A stretch of 64,000 nucleotides of DNA, taken from a virus. Lineage: Duplodnaviria; Caudoviricetes. The notes below the pieces were generated by a model that saw nothing but the letters and a program-made list of their open reading frames with translations, ran no database searches and was not told the origin of the DNA. Positions 10,696-58,562 of this stretch are shown piece by piece. The stretch's first letter is position 1. Each line of letters opens with the position of its first letter. Location of the stretch: positions 1 through 64,000 of IMG/VR virus record IMGVR_UViG_3300032038_000018; one strand, given 5' to 3'. Both the position numbers and the translations under genes were made by a program.

Positions 10696-11820
10696 ATGGC
10701 TGGATGTAAACAAGGTTCATGCGGTTCCAGCTGTGGACAAGGATGCGGAAGCTCTTGTGGAAGAGGTTGTGGCACAGCTTGCAGTAGTAGCTGTGGTCAA
10801 AGTTGTAGCACCGGTAACTCTGGGCAATCGCAAAGTGGCGGCAGTAGCAGTAGTAGCAGTTGCAGCGGTTGCGGTAAGAGCTGTGGCGACGCTTGTGGCG
10901 GAAGCACTTGTGGTACATCATCGGCGGCTCATGCATTACCTGCAGGCTGTGCTGGTAATACATGTACTGGCGGCTGCAGTGGCTGCAGTCATAGTGCCGT
11001 TGGTAGTAGTGGTAATTGCGGTATTACATGTTCGGCAAACTGCGGATTTAGCTGTGGAAAAAGTTGTGGATCAGATTGCACCGGATATTGTGGACCATCT
11101 TGTGGAGGCTTATGTGCAGCAGGTAGTGGTTCCGTACCAAGTGGCCCATCTGATACAGTAGATTGGACTCCTGTTCAATCTGGATGCAGCGTGTGCGATA
11201 CAACTTGTATGACAGAATGCTCAACCGGATGCAGTAGTGGATGCAAAAATGATTGTGGCGGCTGTGGTGGATGCTCCAATTCATGCACAGGCACTTGTAG
11301 TAATAACTGTAGTAAAACATGTAAAGGTTTTTGCACTGGCTCATGTGAAACAATGTGTGTTAATACATGTAGCTCATCTTGTAGCTCATGTACAAGTAGT
11401 TGTACTGGGTCATGCTCATCGTGTACCGGTAATTGTGTGCAATCATGTAATACTGGTTGCTTAGGATGCGATTCAGAATGCGATACAACATGTAAATTCG
11501 TATGTAGTCAACAATGCCAAGGTGGCTGCTCAGGACAGTGCTCAGGATGCACTAATAAATGTTCGTCGTGCTCTAATGACTGTAGTGGAACTTGTGGAGG
11601 CGATACATGTGCAACAACATGCAGAGCTTTATGCAAAAACTATTGCACAAGTTGTACAGGTTGCAATACTGCATGTGAAGATGGTTGCTTGTCATCTTGC
11701 ATAGGTTGCACTGGTACATGTGAAGGACAATGCACTGTATCTGCTACGGAAAGATCTATATCTACTCAACGAACATATCTTGAGAGTAGATACAATGAAA
11801 CATATTCCGAGGTGATTTGA
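10696..11820 (+). CDS. CXXX-repeat Cys-rich protein (radical SAM target)
   Basis: AAGGAGGT RBS; begins MAGC; 76 Cys in 374 aa. Confidence 0.85.
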   Translation: MAGCKQGSCGSSCGQGCGSSCGRGCGTACSSSCGQSCSTGNSGQSQSGGSSSSSSCSGCGKSCGDACGGSTCGTSSAAHALPAGCAGNTCTGGCSGCSHSAVGSSGNCGITCSANCGFSCGKSCGSDCTGYCGPSCGGLCAAGSGSVPSGPSDTVDWTPVQSGCSVCDTTCMTECSTGCSSGCKNDCGGCGGCSNSCTGTCSNNCSKTCKGFCTGSCETMCVNTCSSSCSSCTSSCTGSCSSCTGNCVQSCNTGCLGCDSECDTTCKFVCSQQCQGGCSGQCSGCTNKCSSCSNDCSGTCGGDTCATTCRALCKNYCTSCTGCNTACEDGCLSSCIGCTGTCEGQCTVSATERSISTQRTYLESRYNETYSEVI

Positions 11821-11821
11821 C

Positions 11822-12877
11822 GTGCATGATACAACGATAAATAAACCAATTCCTGTAAGGTCAAATCCTGCTAAGATAGAAAATAAAGCAATACCTAGCA
11901 ATTATCTTGCATTATTGAAAAGAATAATGATCGAATTTGCTAGAAGAAGTGGACTTAGAATAAATAATACAACCGGTGAATTATTAGGCGTATCATATTC
12001 TGGATTAAATGGTCCACTTAGAACTAATTTAACTTGGAATCCAAGTGAATTTTTCCCAGAAGATTTTAATGATACAGATATTGGTTCAGTAAGTGATACA
12101 AGATTAACTAAAGCACAAGCTGAATTTGTAATAAATAAATTATTAGAGATTTGTGATATAGAAGGCTATGCTAAAATACCCACTATAAACACAAATAATA
12201 CTACATCGATAACTCAAGTAAATGCAACGTTACCATTTCCTAAAGTTGCAGGAGTAATATCTCAATTATTTGAATATGGTACACTTTATGGTGTTTTGAA
12301 TACTATTTCTGCTGAATCATATACAAGCCCAACTAGTTCGTGTAGAACAGGTTGTACTGGTTTATGCTATGGCTCATGTGCAGTAAATTGTATTGAATCG
12401 TGTAGTAGTACATGCACAGGTGGTTGTTCAACAGGTTGCGATGGTACATGCTCTATTGATTGCACATCTGATTGTGCTGTAAATTGTAGCACTAATTGTA
12501 GCGGTGACTGTGAAAGTGGCTGTGACAGACTATGCATTGATGGATGCATGTCTGAATGTTTAGGCTCATGCACAACTACTTGTACGAATGCATGCAAAAC
12601 TGAATGCACGACTGAATGCGTTAGTTCATGCACAGGCGAATGCACCTTATATTGTACTGCAGAATGCTCAGTTAAATGTACTACTGAATGCGCATCAAGT
12701 TGCACGAATGCTTGCAGTGGATATTGCAAAGGAGGTTGCTATACAACATGCTCATCTACATGCTCAAGTTCATGTGGCTATAACAACTGTATGGGCGCAT
12801 GTAAATCTGGGTGTAGTACTTCGTGCACTAATGGCTGTAGTGGTAATTGTAGAGGTCATAGTAATTCAAATACGTAG
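11822..12877 (+). CDS. N-terminal domain plus CXXX-repeat target domain
   Basis: About 170-aa non-repetitive N-terminus, then SSCRTGCTGLCYGSC...; 43 Cys in the repeat, the first 37 in perfect 4-residue register. Confidence 0.85.
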   Translation: MHDTTINKPIPVRSNPAKIENKAIPSNYLALLKRIMIEFARRSGLRINNTTGELLGVSYSGLNGPLRTNLTWNPSEFFPEDFNDTDIGSVSDTRLTKAQAEFVINKLLEICDIEGYAKIPTINTNNTTSITQVNATLPFPKVAGVISQLFEYGTLYGVLNTISAESYTSPTSSCRTGCTGLCYGSCAVNCIESCSSTCTGGCSTGCDGTCSIDCTSDCAVNCSTNCSGDCESGCDRLCIDGCMSECLGSCTTTCTNACKTECTTECVSSCTGECTLYCTAECSVKCTTECASSCTNACSGYCKGGCYTTCSSTCSSSCGYNNCMGACKSGCSTSCTNGCSGNCRGHSNSNT

Positions 12878-44109: not shown

Positions 44110-46581
44110 ATGCAAAGGGCCGATTTGATAAAGAAGCTAGATACCGAAATAGCTGATATTGGGTATTGTCATTCAATAACTTCAATATCACCCGGAACTG
44201 AATGTAATGCGTCAAGAGCACAGATGCTTGCCAATAACTTGAAGCAGACACAGGTTATGGAAAATCCTGATTTCCCTAGAGTATTCTCTGGTATGGAGAA
44301 CTCTTTTGGTAAATTCTGTAGAGGATATAAACGTATAGAAGGCGATTGGCGAGTTATAAAGAGAATACAGAAATACACTAATGGTAAAATATTCTCAGTC
44401 GTACTCTTCAATGACAAGACAAATACACTAGACATAATAGAGAATCCATTTGCTGAAGATGGACCTGAAAGATTCGGATACAAATATAACTATGACGAAC
44501 TTGATAAACTTCATGATGGAGATGTAGTTAAGGATGGCACTGTAGTTTATAAATCTAATTCATATGATGACCATATGAATTATTGCATGGGCTTCTCTGC
44601 TAGAGTTGCTTACAATACATCTGTATCTACTCTTGAAGATGGTATTATCATTAGAAAGAGTTTCGCTGATAGTAAGTTTACTAATGAAGTAAGTAGCTTT
44701 GTTGTATCTATAAACGACAATGAGATTCCCTTGTTAATTCATGAATATGATGGTGGATTTCATTCAATACCTAAGATAGGTGATCCCGTAAAGGGAACAG
44801 ATCTCGTAGCTATCAAGAAGATCAATAAGAGAAAGATAGCATTTGACTTTACCAACGATGCAGTTACTAAGCCTGATAAAAACTGTGCTATGTATACTGT
44901 AGGTAAGAATAGTGTAATCTATGATATAGATATATACTATAACGATAGCAATGAATTCCCTGATAATTCATTCTATAAAGAGCTCGCTGTATATTACAAA
45001 GAGCAATACAATTACTATTCTCAGATATTTGATATCTGTGAAGAGTTTAAACATAAAGGATGCAATAGAACTTCCAATGCAGATCTTATGCACAAGAAAG
45101 CTAAGGATTTTGTCAATGTGCATGATAGCGATTTCAAATGGAAGAATAAAGAAAGAGCATTCTCATACATCAACATAGTATTTCATTGCATAAAGACATT
45201 ATCACTTCATGAAGGATATAAGATCGTTGGTAGATATGGAGACAAAGGTGTTATATCTGAGAGACGTGATGATGCATCTGAGATACTGACTAAGAGATTT
45301 GATCCTACTAATCCGAGAGATAAAGCTATAGCTAAATATCTTGGTATAGAAGGATCTCCTGAAATGAATATTAGCATTGTACCCGATGCATGTATGTATT
45401 ATGACGAAGATGGCAGATATGTAGATATATGCCAGAATGCAGCAGCTGCATACAGACGCGAGGATACAGGACAGCTTACAGAAGTAGAAATCAATTTCAT
45501 ATCTGAAGAGATAGTCAAAGAGGCTAAGAAGAGATATGAAAAAGATGGATTAGATGCTGCATTTGAACTTCTTATGAGCTATGCTGAGCAATTCCCTGAT
45601 AGTGAAATGAGAGCAATAGCTAAAGAATTCGATTTGGTATATGTCGTATCTAAGAAACTCTGGAAGACTAGTAAGAAAAATAAGCAGAGATTTGTAGAAG
45701 ATATCTTTAGAGATGGATTCTATCTGCAGAAACTTCCTACTGCAGATTGGAGATTCGATAGGATATGCAAACTGTACGATATGTATCCTTTCATTAAGAG
45801 AAAGACAATGTATATCAATAACTTTGGTATAAAGCATAAAGTAGTTAATCCTATGATAGTAGGAGAGAAATACTTCTTTATACTTAAGCAGAACTCTAAT
45901 AAGAATTTCTCTGCTAGAAGTGTATCTAAAGTAAATAAGTTAGGTTTACCATCTAAGAGTGCTGATAAGAAAGAGTCAAGAACTAATATATCAGATACTC
46001 CTATCAACAGAGGTGAGACTTATAACTTACTTGCTGCAGTAGATGCTGCAACACTTATGACAAGCGATATATTCACTAAGAATTCTCCTGTAGCTAGGAA
46101 GGATTTCAAGAATATTATTACATCACCATTGGATCCATTCAAGTATAGACAGATGAAGATTAAGCAGTCTTATACCAATGTGAATGTACTTAATCTTAAA
46201 GCTAGACTTAAGACTATGGGTATCGGGTTTGATATCATAACTAATAAGTCTCTGGGTCTTGCTATAATAGATCAGTATAAGACGTTTATGAAGTTTAATG
46301 AGATAACTTTCTTTGATTATGGTTATAATAGAAAGTATTATGCTTTCATTATCAATAACTATAATAAGCTCAAAGATCCTAAGAAATCGTTTGATGATAC
46401 TTGGGAAGAGCTTATATCAATGGAAGAATTTAAACTTCTGGAAATTGATGACGAAATAGTAAAGACTGCACATGACATTATGGAAAAGTATTATTACGTG
46501 GAGCCATCTGCTGCAGATGCACTTATTGAAGATGATATCCACGAGATAATAACAGTCGACAATATTCCCGATAAAGACTAA
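44110..46581 (+). CDS. Multisubunit RNA polymerase beta subunit, C-terminal part (probably non-virion RNAP)
   Basis: SRAQM...Q, LEDGIII, KIVGRYGDKGVIS, VGEKYFFILKQ...FSARS. Confidence 0.88.
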   Translation: MQRADLIKKLDTEIADIGYCHSITSISPGTECNASRAQMLANNLKQTQVMENPDFPRVFSGMENSFGKFCRGYKRIEGDWRVIKRIQKYTNGKIFSVVLFNDKTNTLDIIENPFAEDGPERFGYKYNYDELDKLHDGDVVKDGTVVYKSNSYDDHMNYCMGFSARVAYNTSVSTLEDGIIIRKSFADSKFTNEVSSFVVSINDNEIPLLIHEYDGGFHSIPKIGDPVKGTDLVAIKKINKRKIAFDFTNDAVTKPDKNCAMYTVGKNSVIYDIDIYYNDSNEFPDNSFYKELAVYYKEQYNYYSQIFDICEEFKHKGCNRTSNADLMHKKAKDFVNVHDSDFKWKNKERAFSYINIVFHCIKTLSLHEGYKIVGRYGDKGVISERRDDASEILTKRFDPTNPRDKAIAKYLGIEGSPEMNISIVPDACMYYDEDGRYVDICQNAAAAYRREDTGQLTEVEINFISEEIVKEAKKRYEKDGLDAAFELLMSYAEQFPDSEMRAIAKEFDLVYVVSKKLWKTSKKNKQRFVEDIFRDGFYLQKLPTADWRFDRICKLYDMYPFIKRKTMYINNFGIKHKVVNPMIVGEKYFFILKQNSNKNFSARSVSKVNKLGLPSKSADKKESRTNISDTPINRGETYNLLAAVDAATLMTSDIFTKNSPVARKDFKNIITSPLDPFKYRQMKIKQSYTNVNVLNLKARLKTMGIGFDIITNKSLGLAIIDQYKTFMKFNEITFFDYGYNRKYYAFIINNYNKLKDPKKSFDDTWEELISMEEFKLLEIDDEIVKTAHDIMEKYYYVEPSAADALIEDDIHEIITVDNIPDKD

Positions 46582-46644: not shown

Positions 46645-47307
46645 ATGAAAAAGTTTCTCGCTATCTGTGAATATGGTAGCTTTATGAAGATATTGTTTAC
46701 TAATGACAGTAATTCTAAAGACCTTATTTCTGAGGTACAGAATGCTATCACAGAATGCCCTTATGAGACATTTGAAACACCCATGGGTATTTGTAAGATA
46801 TATAAAGAGAATAATACTTGGGTAGCAGTTACAGATGACATGTGCGTAGAGATACTTGAGAACGAAACAGATGTTGAAGTACATCTTGACTTTGAAGATG
46901 AAATTAATGACCTTAGTGACTTTAAGGATATAATATATCTTAAGATATGCTACATACTCGGATATATTATCTATAGAGATCCGAAGATATATACGGACTT
47001 ACTTATACCTTATATGTCTAAGGTAATTGGTGGAGTTGAAGGAAGTTCTATTAATTTTAATGAATATAAGATATTCACTGATCTTGAAGAGAAGGTCAAC
47101 AATATAACTGATCACATTTCTATGCAGGATATCATATTCCACAATAACATGAGGAATTATGTTGGCTCTGATGAAATAATTGCAGTTACAGTTATAGATA
47201 TGACATTTGCTACCAATATATTTAAAATAAAGGATATATTCTGTATAGGAGAAGAGCTTTACGAATACAAAAAGGAGATGGACAAAGGACTCGTTACAGA
47301 GCAATAA
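46645..47307 (+). CDS. Hypothetical protein
   Basis: AAGGAGG RBS; 220 aa. Confidence 0.65.
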   Translation: MKKFLAICEYGSFMKILFTNDSNSKDLISEVQNAITECPYETFETPMGICKIYKENNTWVAVTDDMCVEILENETDVEVHLDFEDEINDLSDFKDIIYLKICYILGYIIYRDPKIYTDLLIPYMSKVIGGVEGSSINFNEYKIFTDLEEKVNNITDHISMQDIIFHNNMRNYVGSDEIIAVTVIDMTFATNIFKIKDIFCIGEELYEYKKEMDKGLVTEQ

Positions 47308-47367
47308 GAATTATAGCATATGCTACCCGCATATGCTATATTTTTTGTTTATATATTATATTATTGA

Positions 47368-47960
47368 TGAGGATAGGTAATAGCCCGGGATGATGCCCCC
47401 GGACCTATCCACTTACAGATGCGTGGTCAACTGTAAGCGGTATGGGCGCTTGGGTTTGGGAACCCCTGGGTCGGCGCCAATGCCATCGTTTCCAGAGGAA
47501 ACTCAATATCTGGTTCAGCCTTGTGCGTCAATAAAAGGCGCATGACGAGCAAATTGGATTAGAGTATCTCTCTTGCTACCACTTTGGAGACGATGAAACA
47601 AAACATGATTAACAGCGAGGCTTATGCACACTTCACATACATTATTCGGAAACGGATACATTATGTTGGTGGCCTCACCGCTTACAGGGTGAACTGATAT
47701 AGAAGATCATTAAGAAACTCATTACTATATAGAGATGGTTGCATCGTCTCTATAGAACTAACGATTCTTTAGCATAGCTAATCCACTAGCGTGCTTTAGA
47801 TATACAATGATCCGATATAACTACGTATCAATATCTTAAATGGATTTATATGCAAAGGTGCATCACGCCAGATGCAATCGGAGGATATAATGAAGTATAA
47901 GAAATTGATATGTACACAATAGTCATCTGTATAAGTACATGCTTGCATGTACTTCTTTTT
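47368..47960 (+). ncRNA. Candidate large structured non-coding RNA (about 580 nt)
   Basis: No ORF of 60 aa or more, GC-elevated, many helices, own promoter motif (47350) and terminator (47933-47960). Confidence 0.6.
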
Positions 47961-48012
47961 TTTGTTTATTTTTTGTATTTACTGGATACATATTTATAAA
48001 GGAGTGATAACT

Positions 48013-48930
48013 ATGAAGCCTAAAGACTTAACGGAATCATTCTATGATAAAATGATAAATATATTATATTCATATATTAAAGATTGCATAGATTGGAAAA
48101 AGATAAATGACATTGCACCTAGAAAAATACATTGGTATACAGGTAAAAAGAGATGCCAATTACTATTAGCAATCACTGATACAAAATCACCATATACTGC
48201 AAAATACTTTGGTGATGATGTATCTGCCGCTCAAGCTATGAGCCATTCTATATATTGCACTCAATCGTATATAGATAATTTCAGACCAACCAGATCTCTA
48301 ATGTACATGAAAGCATTTAGAAAAAGTTATATGGTAGATATATTTGATATGTGCACATGTAACTATGATAATATACTAAAACATGCTGATTATTCACATG
48401 ATAAAGCGTTGGCTGTGGTTAAATCATCCGGTGCAGATATGTTAATACAAACGGCCAATCAACTTAAGGCTGAATGTAGAACTAATCAGCTCAATCCTAC
48501 TGCTGAAAATTTTGAAACTGTCATAGAGCAAAATGAATTAATAATTGATATGTGCAATGAGCTAAGTCAAGTTACTAATCTATTTAGCTTAAATTGCAAA
48601 AGAGTTACAAGCAATGTACTTTTTACAATGTTTGATATTCAATCTCTATATAATATAGCATTCGATCCTGCATTTTCTGCTCTACAAAGATCTGATATAG
48701 ATGGATTCGAAATAGCTAGAAGACAAAAGATAGCCGGAGAAATTATATCTGCTATTGTAGATGCTATACATTCTAATGTAACAAGCTCTTACAAAGTAGA
48801 GATGGAATATGACAAAGAATATCAATGTGCAATGAAAGTACATAGACTAGCTATTCCTATAGAAGAAGACGAAAGTACATTATATGAAGTAAGAATATCG
48901 CATGCTGATCCATTAATAATATCGACTTAA
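48013..48930 (+). CDS. Hypothetical protein
   Basis: AAGGAGTGA RBS before ATG at 48013. Confidence 0.65.
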   Translation: MKPKDLTESFYDKMINILYSYIKDCIDWKKINDIAPRKIHWYTGKKRCQLLLAITDTKSPYTAKYFGDDVSAAQAMSHSIYCTQSYIDNFRPTRSLMYMKAFRKSYMVDIFDMCTCNYDNILKHADYSHDKALAVVKSSGADMLIQTANQLKAECRTNQLNPTAENFETVIEQNELIIDMCNELSQVTNLFSLNCKRVTSNVLFTMFDIQSLYNIAFDPAFSALQRSDIDGFEIARRQKIAGEIISAIVDAIHSNVTSSYKVEMEYDKEYQCAMKVHRLAIPIEEDESTLYEVRISHADPLIIST

Positions 48931-49012
48931 ATAGAGGCGTCAATTAAGACGCCTCTATTTAATTTATATATTATAATATTGATAATGACTGACAATTTAA
49001 GGAGGATTGCTT

Positions 49013-49156
49013 ATGCTATTAGTAATAATATGTATTATATTAGGATTTTCATTGTTTGTTGAAAAAGGAAAAAGAATCGCCGCTGAGATGGCAAATTCAT
49101 TTTTCAAATTTATAATTGTAATTCTTATTATAGTCATTATCATTATAATAAAGTAG
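49013..49156 (+). CDS. 47-aa two-helix membrane protein (below the ORF-track length cut-off)
   Basis: MLLVIICIILGFSLFVEKGKRIAAEMANSFFKFIIVILIIVIIIIIK; AAGGAGG RBS, promoter at 48965, hairpin terminator. Confidence 0.6.
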   Translation: MLLVIICIILGFSLFVEKGKRIAAEMANSFFKFIIVILIIVIIIIIK

Positions 49157-49180
49157 GCCTCGGCCTACTTTATTTTTTTG

Positions 49181-51418
49181 TTATAGGTAATTAGAAAATC
49201 TGTTATTCTCTCCAGCTTCTAACTCAACGCCATATTTTTTTGCATATTTCTTGATATTCTTAGCTAATTCAGCTTCATGTTCTTTATCAACATAATTAAA
49301 GAATTTGATAGCTAATTTAACATGCTTAGCATCTGGCATTGGATATTTCTTTAAAGAAGGAATACCAAAGTCGGTCCTATCTTCTGCAGGTAATGATCCT
49401 TCTTTAGCTACTTCTTTATCAAATTCTTGTAGTCTCTTATCATTACCTATAGTATACTTAAGTCTTCTAAATGATGGATCTTGATCGGCATTCTTTTTAT
49501 CTCTTATTGTACCTTGTATATAAGATTTAGCTACAGATGTGCCTTTAATGATAAGAGGTTGACCAGATACATATTTCTTATATGCAAATCCAATCTCTTT
49601 ATCTTTATCAGCTAACTGTATGCCTTCTATTATATACAGATTCTTACTGTCTTCATGGCATATTCTGATGATTTCATCTATTACTGCATCATACAGTTTA
49701 ACATTGAAATGCCCAGAAGGATTAAATTGCTCTCTATCTTTTGCTTCTGGATATTTCTTATATACTTTAGCTAATATTCCTTTACCAGAAGAATCATAGC
49801 CATGTTCTATACCATCTATTTCAAACATATGTGCATTATACTTCTTCTCATATTCTTCAGCTAAAGTAGTTTTACCAGAACCAGACAAACCAGTTACAAA
49901 TAATATGTTATTTGGACCTGGTTCCCATTTCTCAATGTTTCTAATAGTATCTTTCTTAGATACTATCAAATTTTCAGTAGCAGGTTCTGCTTCTTCTGTA
50001 GCCGCTTTTTCGAATCCATCCAAGTGCTTTTGCATACGCATATTACATTTAATACTGCGTTTATATTCTTTAATACTATTATCAGCATCGCCATTGTTAA
50101 TATTTCTTTTAGCCGCACGTATGCTGGAAGTTAACATTGACGTGCCTTTAACTATTAAAGGTTGTCCTTTTATCAAATCAACGTACTTATATGTTGCACC
50201 ATTTTGATCAACATCCGCTCCAGCCATTTGAATGCCTTCTATTACATACAGATTATTTTTGTCTTCATGACATATTTTGACAACATATGCCATTATATCG
50301 TTATACATATCCATCGGAAAACTTGTTTTCTTAGCTTTGTAATCTGCAAATTTCTGTTTCCATGTAGGAAACTTTTTATAAATTTTTTCGAGTATACCCA
50401 TACCTGAAGAGTCATAGCCATACTCGATATTATCCAATTCAAACTTATATGCATTGTATTTTTTCGCATACTCTTCCGCAAGAGTGGTTTTACCGGATCC
50501 AGAAAATCCTGTAACAAACAAAATGTTATTAGGACCGGGTTTCCATTTTTCAAGATTGTATACGCCATCTTTCTTAGGAATAATTACATTTTCAGTAGCA
50601 GGTTCTACTTCTTCTAATGCAGCATCTATTCTAGGACTTCTACTCTGGATATATGCATTCATATTCTCCATAGCTGCATCATCTATTTCAAACTTCTTAT
50701 CGGTAAGATACTTAAAGAATTCAGTATAATCTTTATCAAGAATCTTGAAATAGTTTACACTAGGATTCTTACTCATTACTTCATCTTTAAGTTTCTCTTT
50801 TACTTTATCTACAGCTTGTATCTTATGATGCATATTCTCATCTGTCTTGATTTCTATTTCCAGATTATAGTTAGGAATATAGAAGTCTGGTATATATACA
50901 TGAGCTTTACCTTCATACATGTAGATATAATTATGAGGAGATGGTCCCATTATATCTTTAGCACTAAAGCCCATGATATGATCCATTGTATACAGGAAGT
51001 CTTTCTCATAAGAACCAACATAGTCAACATAACCGGATTTATTACTAAATTTGTAAGAGCCTGAGATGGATTTATTCTTAAGCATCTTTCTCTGCATATT
51101 GGGATCATTTAACAGATGTGCTTTACCATATTTATCAATCATTCTCTGTTTAGCTATCTTAGTATATTCTTGCTTACATTTGGGATTATTGCAAAATCTA
51201 TTATATTTACCATTAGCTTCATTCCATGTAGTATCTTTACCACATTGAATACATTTGCCATGAGTCTTACCAGTTATGCAATAATATAAGAACTGCATAT
51301 CTGTATATCCTTTAGGCTTTAATCCGGGATGGTGTACCTTAATATGTTTTGACCATCCTGGCATCGAAGAAAATTTCATGCCACATTCAGGGCATTTAAA
51401 TGTAGTTATCTTTCTCAT
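49181..51418 (-). CDS. Multidomain protein: Zn finger + PD-(D/E)XK nuclease-like + two P-loop kinase-like domains + small C-terminal domain
   Basis: CPEC..H...H; YIPDFY...EIEIK; GFSGSGKTT and GLSGSGKTT; linkers EPATEN. Confidence 0.75.
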   Translation of the reverse strand: MRKITTFKCPECGMKFSSMPGWSKHIKVHHPGLKPKGYTDMQFLYYCITGKTHGKCIQCGKDTTWNEANGKYNRFCNNPKCKQEYTKIAKQRMIDKYGKAHLLNDPNMQRKMLKNKSISGSYKFSNKSGYVDYVGSYEKDFLYTMDHIMGFSAKDIMGPSPHNYIYMYEGKAHVYIPDFYIPNYNLEIEIKTDENMHHKIQAVDKVKEKLKDEVMSKNPSVNYFKILDKDYTEFFKYLTDKKFEIDDAAMENMNAYIQSRSPRIDAALEEVEPATENVIIPKKDGVYNLEKWKPGPNNILFVTGFSGSGKTTLAEEYAKKYNAYKFELDNIEYGYDSSGMGILEKIYKKFPTWKQKFADYKAKKTSFPMDMYNDIMAYVVKICHEDKNNLYVIEGIQMAGADVDQNGATYKYVDLIKGQPLIVKGTSMLTSSIRAAKRNINNGDADNSIKEYKRSIKCNMRMQKHLDGFEKAATEEAEPATENLIVSKKDTIRNIEKWEPGPNNILFVTGLSGSGKTTLAEEYEKKYNAHMFEIDGIEHGYDSSGKGILAKVYKKYPEAKDREQFNPSGHFNVKLYDAVIDEIIRICHEDSKNLYIIEGIQLADKDKEIGFAYKKYVSGQPLIIKGTSVAKSYIQGTIRDKKNADQDPSFRRLKYTIGNDKRLQEFDKEVAKEGSLPAEDRTDFGIPSLKKYPMPDAKHVKLAIKFFNYVDKEHEAELAKNIKKYAKKYGVELEAGENNRFSNYL

Positions 51419-56745: not shown

Positions 56746-56821
56746 TGGCTCCCACAGCTGGACTCGAACCAGCGACCCTTTGATTAACAGTCAAATGCTC
56801 TACCGACTGAGCTATATGGGA
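56746..56821 (-). tRNA. tRNA-Asn(GUU)
   Basis: Full cloverleaf, anticodon loop CT GTT AA, TTCGA T-loop, encoded CCA. Confidence 0.95.
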
Positions 56822-56964
56822 TTATAATGACAGTTTTTAATGTGTTTCATGATATCTCGGATAACTGTCAACCTCAACCACCTAATTTTTTAATTGGTAA
56901 GCTACCCAATATAGTGGTGCCGGTGACGGGATTCGAACCCGTAAGGATTTCTCCGAGGGATTTT

Positions 56965-57646
56965 CGTACCACTATATCTTTCGATACCTAATATAATAAA
57001 TATATTAGTTTGTGGTCTGGAATCAATCTTCGTCTGTTCTAGACGGGACATGTATATTCTCTACGCACTCACCCTAAGGTGATTGGCACGGTATTGCCAT
57101 TGGGAAAGGTTTCACCGTTTAGTGTCCATTCATCGTAAGTATCCCTACTTACATGCTCGCGCCCACCGAATTTTTCCAAAGTTTCTTCACTTCTTTTAAT
57201 CTATCTTCTAATTCATAGTAAAAGATATAATCACCACCAGCTTTAGCTGAACATGATTTGGAACAGGTTAAATACCGCGGTCTGTTTCTATTAAGATCAG
57301 CATAAAACCTAGCCCACATGTGATACGTTATTGTAAATGGCTTACCACAAATCATGCATATTTCTTCAGTGGTTTGATATCTAAGTGCATGCTCTCTTTG
57401 GTGTTCACCATGTTTAACTACTTCCAGATTTGATAAGTCATTATTAGATGGATCACCATCTATATGATGAACATCTTCATTCGGCTCTAATAGTCTGCCC
57501 AATTTCTCTTCCATTAGAATTCGAGGATATGAACCAAAATGATTTTTGCCATTTTCGTCTTTATAATAATAACGAACACGGCCGTCTTTACAATTATAAG
57601 TTCTAATATTTTTCATATTTATTATCCTCTCTGGATTTTTATTCTC
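56965..57646 (-). mobile_element. Group I intron (682 nt) in the tRNA-Leu anticodon
   Basis: 5' splice after U34, terminal G; core elements AAACGGTGAAACC, GGCAATACCGTGCCAA, GCGTAGAGAATATAC and GAAGATTGATTCC in canonical order. Confidence 0.88.
57149..57616 (-). CDS. Intron-encoded HNH homing endonuclease
   Basis: RILMEEKLGR...VHHIDGDPSNNDLSNL...H, plus CxxC...CxxxC. Confidence 0.88.
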   Translation of the reverse strand: MKNIRTYNCKDGRVRYYYKDENGKNHFGSYPRILMEEKLGRLLEPNEDVHHIDGDPSNNDLSNLEVVKHGEHQREHALRYQTTEEICMICGKPFTITYHMWARFYADLNRNRPRYLTCSKSCSAKAGGDYIFYYELEDRLKEVKKLWKNSVGASM

Positions 57647-57783
57647 AAGTCCCTTTTGTATTCCAATTCCAACACACCGGCTTATTACGCGAGTTTTGTT
57701 TCATAACATGAATGGAGTCGAACCACACAATGATGGATTTTTACCATCTTACTCGCGGGACATCCGATGCCCTCATTTTTTAA

Positions 57784-58362
57784 TTATTCATCTGTCATAG
57801 GAATTGCCCTAGTGCAAGGTCTTACTGTAGCAGATGATTTAGTAACATCTCTTACTATATCAGCAACGATCTTGTGAGCATTGCCACAGTAATCTGATGT
57901 ATCATCATTGAAGAATGTGATGATTTCTCTCTCAAATACTGCAAAATCAATCTCGGGAAGACCGGGAAGAGGCTCCTCAGATACGATTGTTGAGAACAGA
58001 GGATTACCCTCAAATGCAGTAGTCCAATCTTCTGCAGTTGCAGGAGTATCATCTGCTTCATAGTTAACGTTTATCTTAAGAGTTATGTTACCCATAGGAA
58101 CTACAGTCTTAAGAATCTTGTTAAGAGCTGCAACTTTAGCAACATCATTGGAAGTAACATTGAAAGAGTAAACACCGTTACCCTCTTCTGTGATATGATC
58201 GTCAACTGTTACGTTGGCATCATCCTTGAACAGATTCCATACTTCCTTATGATAGGTTTCCCAAGGTGCAGAAAGACCAACGGTCTCTTTCTTGTCAACC
58301 TTCTTCTTAAGGTTTCTTGCTACTGACATATTAATGCCAGTATATGACTTTCTAGTTGCCAT
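57784..58362 (-). CDS. Hypothetical protein within the tRNA cluster
   Basis: AAGGAGG RBS before ATG at 58362 (MATRKSY). Confidence 0.7.
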   Translation of the reverse strand: MATRKSYTGINMSVARNLKKKVDKKETVGLSAPWETYHKEVWNLFKDDANVTVDDHITEEGNGVYSFNVTSNDVAKVAALNKILKTVVPMGNITLKINVNYEADDTPATAEDWTTAFEGNPLFSTIVSEEPLPGLPEIDFAVFEREIITFFNDDTSDYCGNAHKIVADIVRDVTKSSATVRPCTRAIPMTDE

Positions 58363-58403
58363 GATTGTATTCCTCCTTAATAATAAATTTGTTTTTAAGG
58401 GAA

Positions 58404-58479
58404 TGGTTTCGATAGTAGGACTCGAACCTACATTACGGGTGTCAAAGGCCCGGATCCTGACCAATTGGATGATATCGAA
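58404..58479 (-). tRNA. tRNA-Gln(UUG)
   Basis: Cloverleaf, loop CT TTG AC, encoded CCA; C31:A39 mismatch. Confidence 0.85.
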
Positions 58480-58486
58480 ATCTATC

Positions 58487-58562
58487 TGGTGCGCTAGACG
58501 GGACTCGAACCCACGACCACCGGATTAAAAGTCAGGTGCTCTACCGACTGAGCTACTAGCGC
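58487..58562 (-). tRNA. tRNA-Lys(UUU)
   Basis: Cloverleaf, loop CT TTT AA, encoded CCA; U29:C41 mismatch. Confidence 0.92.

Follow-up and report, generated by a model that had tools for sequence, protein, structure and literature searches.

A large structured RNA, probably the product of a stand-alone gene, in sequences of AR9/phiKZ-like jumbo phages

What is encoded by the gene-free stretch at positions 47349-47963 in the DNA of IMG/VR virus record IMGVR_UViG_3300032038_000018? The DNA analysed here (positions 1 to 64,000 of that record, referred to as the window) is about half of the 128-kb record, which is itself estimated to be ~52% complete. The stretch is about 600 nucleotides (nt) long on the plus strand and lies between open reading frames (ORFs) of 220 and 305 amino acids (aa). 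The preferred answer, to which we give a probability of roughly 0.55, is that the stretch is a gene of its own for a structured non-coding RNA that is made early, acts in trans and binds protein through its invariant unpaired letters. It is highly probable that the RNA belongs to a real, selected and structured family. The family is also likely to represent a previously undescribed class, namely a large modular phage RNA with an invariant core and a 5' hairpin set in freely evolving arms, placed behind an early promoter in a nucleus-type jumbo phage with genes for tubulin and RNA polymerase.

The earlier note, made from the letters of the window, had described the stretch as an ORF-free, highly paired transcription unit with a promoter motif and a terminator followed by a U-tract, and this description held. 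No ORF of 60 aa or more was found in the region under translation table 11, and reading TAG as glutamine opened no frame there. Reading TGA as tryptophan gave a 107-aa frame with four TGA codons and was rejected; the neighbouring genes are intact under table 11. The guanine-cytosine (GC) content of the region was 47-58% vs ~30% in the surroundings. The plus strand folded with a minimum free energy (MFE) of -197.3 kcal/mol (z = -6.3), and the z value of the minus strand was -5.0. The 5' boundary of the unit is formed by the intrinsic terminator that ends the 220-aa gene, and the T-run of this terminator also provides the T-rich stretch that precedes the promoter motif; a terminator was present at the equivalent place in all homologues. 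At the 3' end, the terminator with its U-tract was recovered by the terminator scan, and every homologue had a strong terminal hairpin (9-17 bp stems) followed by 7-8 T. Each of the helices that the note had listed was present on direct reading of the sequence (Table 1).

The RNA polymerase (RNAP) beta subunit encoded upstream of the unit was ~25% identical to the counterparts of AR9, PBS1, phiR1-37 and staphylococcal jumbo phages, a degree of similarity that marks the source as an uncultivated AR9/phiKZ-like jumbo phage. A DNA similarity search of 50,697 GenBank phages gave no match, and neither did single-protein searches of IMG/VR with both flanking ORFs and RNAP beta. Relatives of RNAP beta were found in metagenome assemblies at 90% down to 22% identity, and homologues of the RNA were recovered with this gene as the anchor, from the contigs of the relatives and a metagenome scan, in the same gene slot. 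The samples were ruminant and pig gut assemblies, judged by sample names only. A common gene order (tubulin, recombinase, RNAP beta, ~200-aa ORF, gene-free gap of 360-820 nt, ~300-aa ORF) was present in all phages with 82-90% RNAP beta identity and in one clade at 48% (L007/L008). In L002-L005, L007, L009-L011, L028, and L075-L079, RNAP beta and the ~200-aa ORF precede, and the ~300-aa ORF follows, a gap that holds a terminator, the promoter motif, a well-folding RNA of 260-692 nt, and a strong terminator, in this order. The set comprised 12 distinct RNAs (window, L009, L002, L010, L028, L011, L003, L007, L075, L076, L077, and L079). Overall sequence identity between the RNAs was at background level for most pairs, and L028 was the only one of the metagenome loci that blastn detected with the RNAs as queries. 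Such low identity is expected at this evolutionary distance; the flanking ORFs are also strongly diverged among the phages with 82-90% identical RNAP beta (26-52% aa identity for the upstream ORF and 28-82% for the downstream one).

Three features were kept among these RNAs, as seen in alignments and in separate MFE folds: hairpin A, a core of ~110 nt, and the word UUAACAG. Hairpin A sits directly after the start, and its loop, with the family consensus NNGAURCC, is closed by an invariant GG/CC. It was tested on a plain MAFFT alignment, not structure-fitted, in which it was 89% paired vs 54% after shuffling. The inner stem was 100% paired in 10 sequences, with 3/5 pairs changed on both sides, and all eight pairs of the outer stem showed changes on both sides. 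The family consensus of the core consists of two helices of variable sequence, the long P2 and P3, hairpin B (YUGU-N5-RAUAAAG-N5-AYGR), and the unpaired strand YUUGCUACCA. In hairpin B, the closing pairs YUGU/AYGR are fixed, five pairs vary freely, and the loop reads RAUAAAG or ACUAAAA; L002 and L009 have a plain hairpin in its place. The architecture of P2, P3 and hairpin B was predicted independently by the MFE fold of each sequence. The word UUAACAG, held in the window by the A-rich linker behind the core, stands directly after hairpin B in the subgroup of L010, L011, L028, L077, and L079.

With four sequences of one subgroup, RNAalifold gave 34 pairs, 13 of which had compensatory changes. 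A covariance model made from these four (R1) matched at the expected places in L077 (E = 3e-11), the window (5e-5), L003 (2e-5), L076 (6e-4), and L075 (0.03), and two further rounds (R2 and R3) added L002, L009, and L007. Models R1-R3 matched positions 47486-47593 of the window at E = 1e-5, 1.4e-18, and 1.2e-19, respectively (81.6 bits with R3, which also covers eleven further family members); these E-values, taken from a shortened calibration, are rough. Since R2 also scored a false match inside the RNAP beta ORF of L009 (2428-2534, E = 0.002), E-values of ~1e-2 to 1e-3 are unreliable alone. In alignments A9 and A13, which were fitted to the model structure and whose pairing percentages are inflated by the fitting, 95.9% and 94.4% of the cells were paired, vs 66.8% and 59.0% after shuffling and 26-42% and 27-40% when the 3' partner was slid. 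Changes on both sides were seen at 29/34 pairs in A9 and at 34/34 in A13. An artefact of the fitting is disfavoured because the structure of one subgroup holds in the other, the sequences fold in this way alone, and the slid controls collapse. The collection of homologues and the check for covariation, both proposed earlier as ways to examine the RNA, came out in its favour, with 12 RNAs and compensatory changes at every core pair of A13; these changes, together with the invariant unpaired letters, point to selection on the RNA fold.

Table 1. Coordinates of the RNA unit, its parts and its surroundings in the window
Feature	Position	Strand	Description
RNAP beta subunit	44110-46581		Part of a split multisubunit RNA polymerase
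Upstream 220-aa ORF	46645-47307		Flanks the RNA unit 5'
Upstream intrinsic terminator	47312-47340	+	12-bp stem and T-run; terminator scan; ends the 220-aa gene
Phage promoter motif	47349-47367	+	TTATATATTATATTATTGA; inferred transcription start ~47366-47368
Hairpin A	47371-47410	+	Outer stem, 6-nt 5' bulge AAUAGC, 5-bp inner stem, 8-nt loop AUGAUGCC
Helix	47371-78 / 47403-10	+	GGATAGGT / ACCTATCC; direct reading
Helix	47412-18 / 47431-37	+	CTTACAG / CTGTAAG; direct reading
End-to-end closing helix	47414-47421 / 47924-47931	+	UACAGAUG / CAUCUGUA; MFE fold
Long-range complement	47431-40 / 47678-87	+	CTGTAAGCGG / CCGCTTACAG; direct reading
5'-domain closing helix	47431-47441 / 47677-47687	+	CUGUAAGCGGU / ACCGCUUACAG; 11 bp; MFE and centroid folds
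Arm 1	47445-47478	+	GC-rich hairpin, varies between homologues
Helix	47445-49 / 47474-78	+	GGCGC / GCGCC; direct reading
Core domain	47484-47595	+	P2, A-rich joint, P3, hairpin B, unpaired strand
Helix P2	47484-96 / 47583-95	+	13 bp, 2 G-U
Hairpin B	47521-47545	+	Loop AAUAAAA in the window
Unpaired core strand	47570-47581	+	CUCUUGCUACCA; family form YUUGCUACCA; follows the close of P3, leads into P2
A-rich linker	47596-47616	+	AAACAAAACAUGAUUAACAGC; holds the recurring word UUAACAG; kept vs L009 and L076
Arm 3	47617-47676	+	Hairpin; stem GAGGC/GCCUC kept in L009
Variable 3' domain	47688-47923	+	AT-richer hairpins, including the next two helices
Helix	47705-11 / 47806-12	+	GATCATT / AATGATC; direct reading
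Helix	47728-38 / 47744-54	+	11 bp, 2 G-U
3' intrinsic terminator	47933-47963	+	Hairpin 47933-47954, AAGTACATGC / GCATGTACTT, and T-run; terminator scan; RNA 3' end
Downstream 305-aa ORF	48013-48930		Flanks the RNA unit 3'
Copies of TTATATATTATAWTAKTGA	24767, 35049, 35921, 37252, 47349, 48964, 54960	+	All intergenic
Mini-cassette	48964-49180	+	Perfect motif 48964-82, ribosome-binding site, ATG 49014, terminator GTAGGCCTCGGCCTAC and T8
tRNA genes Asn-GTT, Gln-TTG, Lys-TTT	56746-58562	-	~9 kb from the RNA

Around the core, arm 1, the core arm and arm 3 are predicted to meet in a multiway junction, the 5' domain, which a long-range pairing closes. An alignment that spans the entire 5' domain is possible only with the closest relative, L009. 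Relative to it, 4/11 pairs of the 5'-domain closing helix were changed on both sides and none was broken, while P2 had six compensatory changes and the stem of hairpin A one. The end-to-end closing helix has an equivalent in L009 (UGUAAUCG/CGAUUACA) at the same two places, with 5/8 pairs changed on both sides in this comparison of two sequences only. A 10-nt long-range complement in competition with a local stem had led the earlier note to suggest a pseudoknot or a switch. The pairing was upheld, being part of the 5'-domain closing helix with its four compensatory changes, and no pseudoknot was demonstrated. The competing local stem, 47412-18 with 47431-37, can form in the window and, with 6/7 pairs, in L009; it exists because the two closing helices share CTTACAG/CTGTAAG, and a switch between the two pairings may exist. 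The variable 3' domain could not be aligned with any homologue and is missing from the 260-nt form in L077. Among further pairings tried and rejected, that of loop A with a downstream GUAUCAU was no better than pairing in random windows (control fractions 0.12-0.92, with 0.04 in L077 alone). A pseudoknot of YUUGCUACCA with GGUGG, found in the window, L009 and L075 and not in the L010 group, was unsupported, and the hairpin B loop could, as judged by eye, pair with the stretch that precedes UUGC in some of the sequences but not in all.

The promoter motif noted at 47350 stood; no match to the sigma-70 consensus was found there. The site is one of the copies of a phage-specific motif, TTATATATTATAWTAKTGA, which was counted allowing up to three mismatches and occurred at 7 sites in the window vs 1.55 expected, all seven on the plus strand and intergenic. 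The motif was kept before every homologous RNA, with T-runs upstream, and other copies lie 50-95 nt before start codons. It behaves as a real promoter because the perfect copy at 48964 heads a cassette of ribosome-binding site, ORF and terminator; the encoded protein (~47 aa) is very hydrophobic and the leader is of an ordinary length (~30 nt). The terminator of this mini-cassette abuts a convergent minus-strand gene (49181-51418). Early promoters of the phiKZ/AR9 type, used by the virion RNAP, have an AT-rich extended -10 element with a T-rich stretch upstream (PMC7598289, PMC8244752). The architecture of the window motif fits this class (AT-rich motif of ~10 nt, T-rich stretch upstream, repeated before several units), and we regard it as a candidate early (virion-RNAP) promoter class of the phage. 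From the resemblance to the phiKZ/AR9 early promoters, early timing and a start near 47366-68 were inferred, and a candidate early promoter class of the phage would here drive an RNA gene.

Known RNA families were searched with Rfam 15. The whole window at the gathering score gave three tRNAs only, 47200-48100 at E <= 10 gave noise only, and six homologous loci at E <= 1 gave no match. No tmRNA was found by ARAGORN, and there was no detection by Rfam or ARAGORN of tmRNA, RNase P RNA, 6S, SRP, OLE, HEARO, or other catalogued RNAs. The covariance-model scans, those for ROOL (Rumen-Originating, Ornate, Large) and GOLLD included, agree with the earlier statement that no family could be assigned. 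A resemblance of GAGGAAAC and ACAG..GGCUUAU to RNase P RNA was considered and rejected; these motifs are not kept in the homologues and no RNase P model matched. The family is uncatalogued, and its kind, the large stand-alone phage RNAs, is already known.

The window RNA resembles ROOL in being a large structured RNA encoded by a phage or prophage of rumen or gut origin, and in size (~600 nt vs a ROOL mean of 581 nt). Like the window RNA, ROOL RNAs have few highly conserved nucleotides amid extensive covarying helices, and their function is unknown (PMC5737381). In contrast to ROOL, which is spread over three phyla, the window RNA is limited to one jumbo-phage clade, and the ROOL model did not detect it even with the threshold relaxed to E <= 10. 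The fold described for ROOL has six multistem junctions and three conserved pseudoknots (PMC5737381). For the window RNA, one multiway junction or more is predicted, conservation is confined to the core and hairpin A, and the pseudoknots considered were not supported. Adjacent tRNAs are frequent with ROOL and GOLLD, whereas the tRNA nearest to the window RNA is ~9 kb off on the other strand, and the homologous loci inspected likewise had no tRNA beside the RNA. GOLLD, too, is a large stand-alone RNA gene associated with phages, and it has conserved and less conserved parts (PMC2864571; cryo-EM in bioRxiv 10.1101/2024.12.08.627333), but its model gave no match, and the window RNA is smaller, has no tRNAs in or beside it, and has an unrelated secondary structure.

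The early units of phiKZ/AR9-type jumbo phages share with the window the promoter architecture, its repetition before several units on one strand, and the intrinsic terminators between units (PMC7598289, PMC8244752). They encode proteins behind leaders of 30-40 nt, whereas the product here is an ORF-less RNA of 600 nt. A single small RNA of 75 nt, unconfirmed, has been predicted in phiKZ (PMC8244752). The Rfam model of the phi29 pRNA gave no match to the window RNA. This pRNA and the small stable RNAs of T4 (species 1 and 2, rnaC/rnaD) are stand-alone, stable and structured phage RNAs of ~120-175 nt. The T4 RNAs, of unknown function, lie in a tRNA cluster, and the pRNA, with a structural role, lies at a genome end. 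They differ from the window RNA in being much smaller, in their unrelated sequence, and in their genomic settings.

As a stand-alone RNA gene, the unit would work as follows. Its early-class promoter, read by the virion RNAP, would probably lead to RNA being made soon after infection, most transcripts would probably stop at the terminator to give a discrete stable RNA, and this RNA would probably act in trans. The loops NNGAURCC and RAUAAAG and the strand YUUGCUACCA may form the site at which a protein of the phage or the host binds, the RNA serving as a scaffold of a ribonucleoprotein (RNP) or as a decoy, and the variable arms may only hold and stabilise the core. Of a stand-alone RNA that acts in trans and a leader, we lean towards the former because the unit has its own promoter, a strong terminator, a small invariant core amid free arms, and a variable distance between core and terminator. 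Protein binding as the specific mode of action is put forward tentatively. Several points count against this explanation. Besides the inflated pairing percentages, the rough E-values and the false match given above, the sequences are few and related. The start site, the early timing and the termination efficiency are all deduced from the sequence. The downstream ~300-aa gene begins ~50 nt after the terminator without a promoter motif of its own, and it may depend on read-through. The flanking ORFs have no family or fold match, and the 128-kb record had, apart from the RNA gene itself, no antisense target that fits the conserved single strands with fewer than two mismatches.

If the promoter at 47349 serves the ~300-aa gene, the RNA could act in cis as a very long 5' leader, in the manner of an attenuator or riboregulator, which senses a signal or binds a protein and in this way sets the read-through of the 47933-54 terminator into the ORF at 48013. 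The same fast-evolving ORF follows the terminator by 40-60 nt in 11 distinct RNAs (the clade with 82-90% RNAP beta identity), it lacks a motif copy of its own, and other motif copies do precede start codons. We nevertheless consider a leader unlikely: the core lies from ~20 nt (L077) to ~330 nt (window) away from the terminator with unalignable sequence between them, and inspection by eye, without a systematic scan, revealed no conserved antiterminator or other pairing that would compete with the terminator. Moreover, the core is kept in L007, where no homology of the flanking ORFs to those of the window could be detected, the terminators with their long stems and U-runs are strong in every homologue, and 260-690 nt far exceeds the known bacterial leader sensors. 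Another possibility is self-assembly of the RNA into particles free of protein, as in ROOL and GOLLD, with copies joined via the conserved loops into a multimer or cage. The common niche (a large ornate phage RNA from rumen or gut; PMC5737381; bioRxiv 10.1101/2024.12.08.627333), the conserved loops without an identified intramolecular partner, and the conserved core among freely varying arms would suit it. It is improbable, however, as neither sequence nor structure matched ROOL or GOLLD, no conserved loop was found to be palindromic or self-complementary, and the 2.7-fold variation in length and the reordered domains of L007 are awkward for a fixed geometry.

A transcript of a replication origin or a primer RNA, comparable to RNA II of ColE1 or the R-loop origin of T4, would be a structured transcript with its own promoter, and the unit does lie among genes for replication and recombination (UvsX-like recombinase, RNAP, NAD ligase). 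The RNA gene is, however, present in a single copy in the 128-kb record, the cumulative GC skew has its maximum near 80-84 kb and not at the RNA, and a local dip of the skew at 48-52 kb merely follows two minus-strand genes. With the RNA ended by a strong terminator, and no DNA hairpin or repeat block found after it, an origin is very improbable. No more credible is a decaying mobile element, an intron remnant, or a structured spacer without a function of its own, even though the region evolves very fast, varies in length, and has fast-evolving genes of no known function as neighbours. Such a reading is largely refuted by the covariation, that is, by compensatory changes at all core pairs alongside invariant unpaired letters. 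The unit also has its own promoter and terminator, and 12 diverged phages carry an RNA in this slot. It stands between two complete ORFs (with their own stop, or start and ribosome-binding site) and interrupts no gene. No flanking repeats were found, and group I and II introns had no Rfam match in 47200-48100 or in the six homologous loci.

The stand-alone RNA gene favoured here appears, from the searches made, to belong to a narrow family confined to one clade of AR9/phiKZ-like jumbo phages. Model R3 gave no match in 90 (42 + 48) more distant RNAP beta loci (25-47% identity, ~1 Mb), and in L006, L012, and L029 (47-52% RNAP beta identity) the fetched stretch had no core match. A strict core pattern was found neither in IMG/VR nor in 185,579 prokaryote genomes. 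A pattern of the hairpin A motif had 14 matches in IMG/VR, which were rejected as chance, none having the promoter or a complementary stem. Within the family, the minimal form is the 260-nt RNA of a rumen assembly (L077:4902-5161), which consists of hairpin A, the core, and the terminator (MFE z = -5.2). The RNA of L007 (L007:11272-11963; RNAP beta 48% identical) is 692 nt long and has no hairpin A; its core (11749-11857) lies in the 3' part, 480 nt from the 5' end, and the order of the domains is changed. A 47% relative has, at the equivalent place after the ~200-aa ORF, a hairpin-rich gap of ~380 nt that ends in a terminator (L029:7600-7990); neither the core model nor the promoter motif matched there, and the gap may hold an unrelated or very diverged RNA.

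Large and intricately folded RNAs are rare in bacteria and phages and have repeatedly turned out to have unusual biochemistry, as in ribozymes and the RNA cages of ROOL and GOLLD. To our knowledge, essentially nothing is known about non-coding RNAs of RNAP-encoding phages, and the family described here adds a well-supported large structured RNA from such phages. Should it act as an early RNP, a decoy, or a self-assembling RNA similar to ROOL and GOLLD, the takeover of the host by jumbo phages would involve a new, RNA-based participant. The family is narrow and its hosts are uncultivated, but with a defined promoter and terminator, a 260-nt minimal form, and a covariance model, it is directly testable.

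The window as a whole is AT-rich (GC ~34%) and, in addition to the RNAP beta gene and the three tRNAs, it encodes a PhuZ-like tubulin, a UvsX/RecA-like recombinase, and an NAD-dependent ligase. The two ORFs flanking the RNA had no Pfam or PHROG family match, and AlphaFold models of their proteins (predicted local distance difference test scores, pLDDT, of 68 and 79) gave no Foldseek match in the PDB at E <= 0.001. Both ORFs evolve far faster than the adjoining RNAP beta gene. The downstream 305-aa protein was predicted to form a long helical bundle with a C-terminal beta-sheet.

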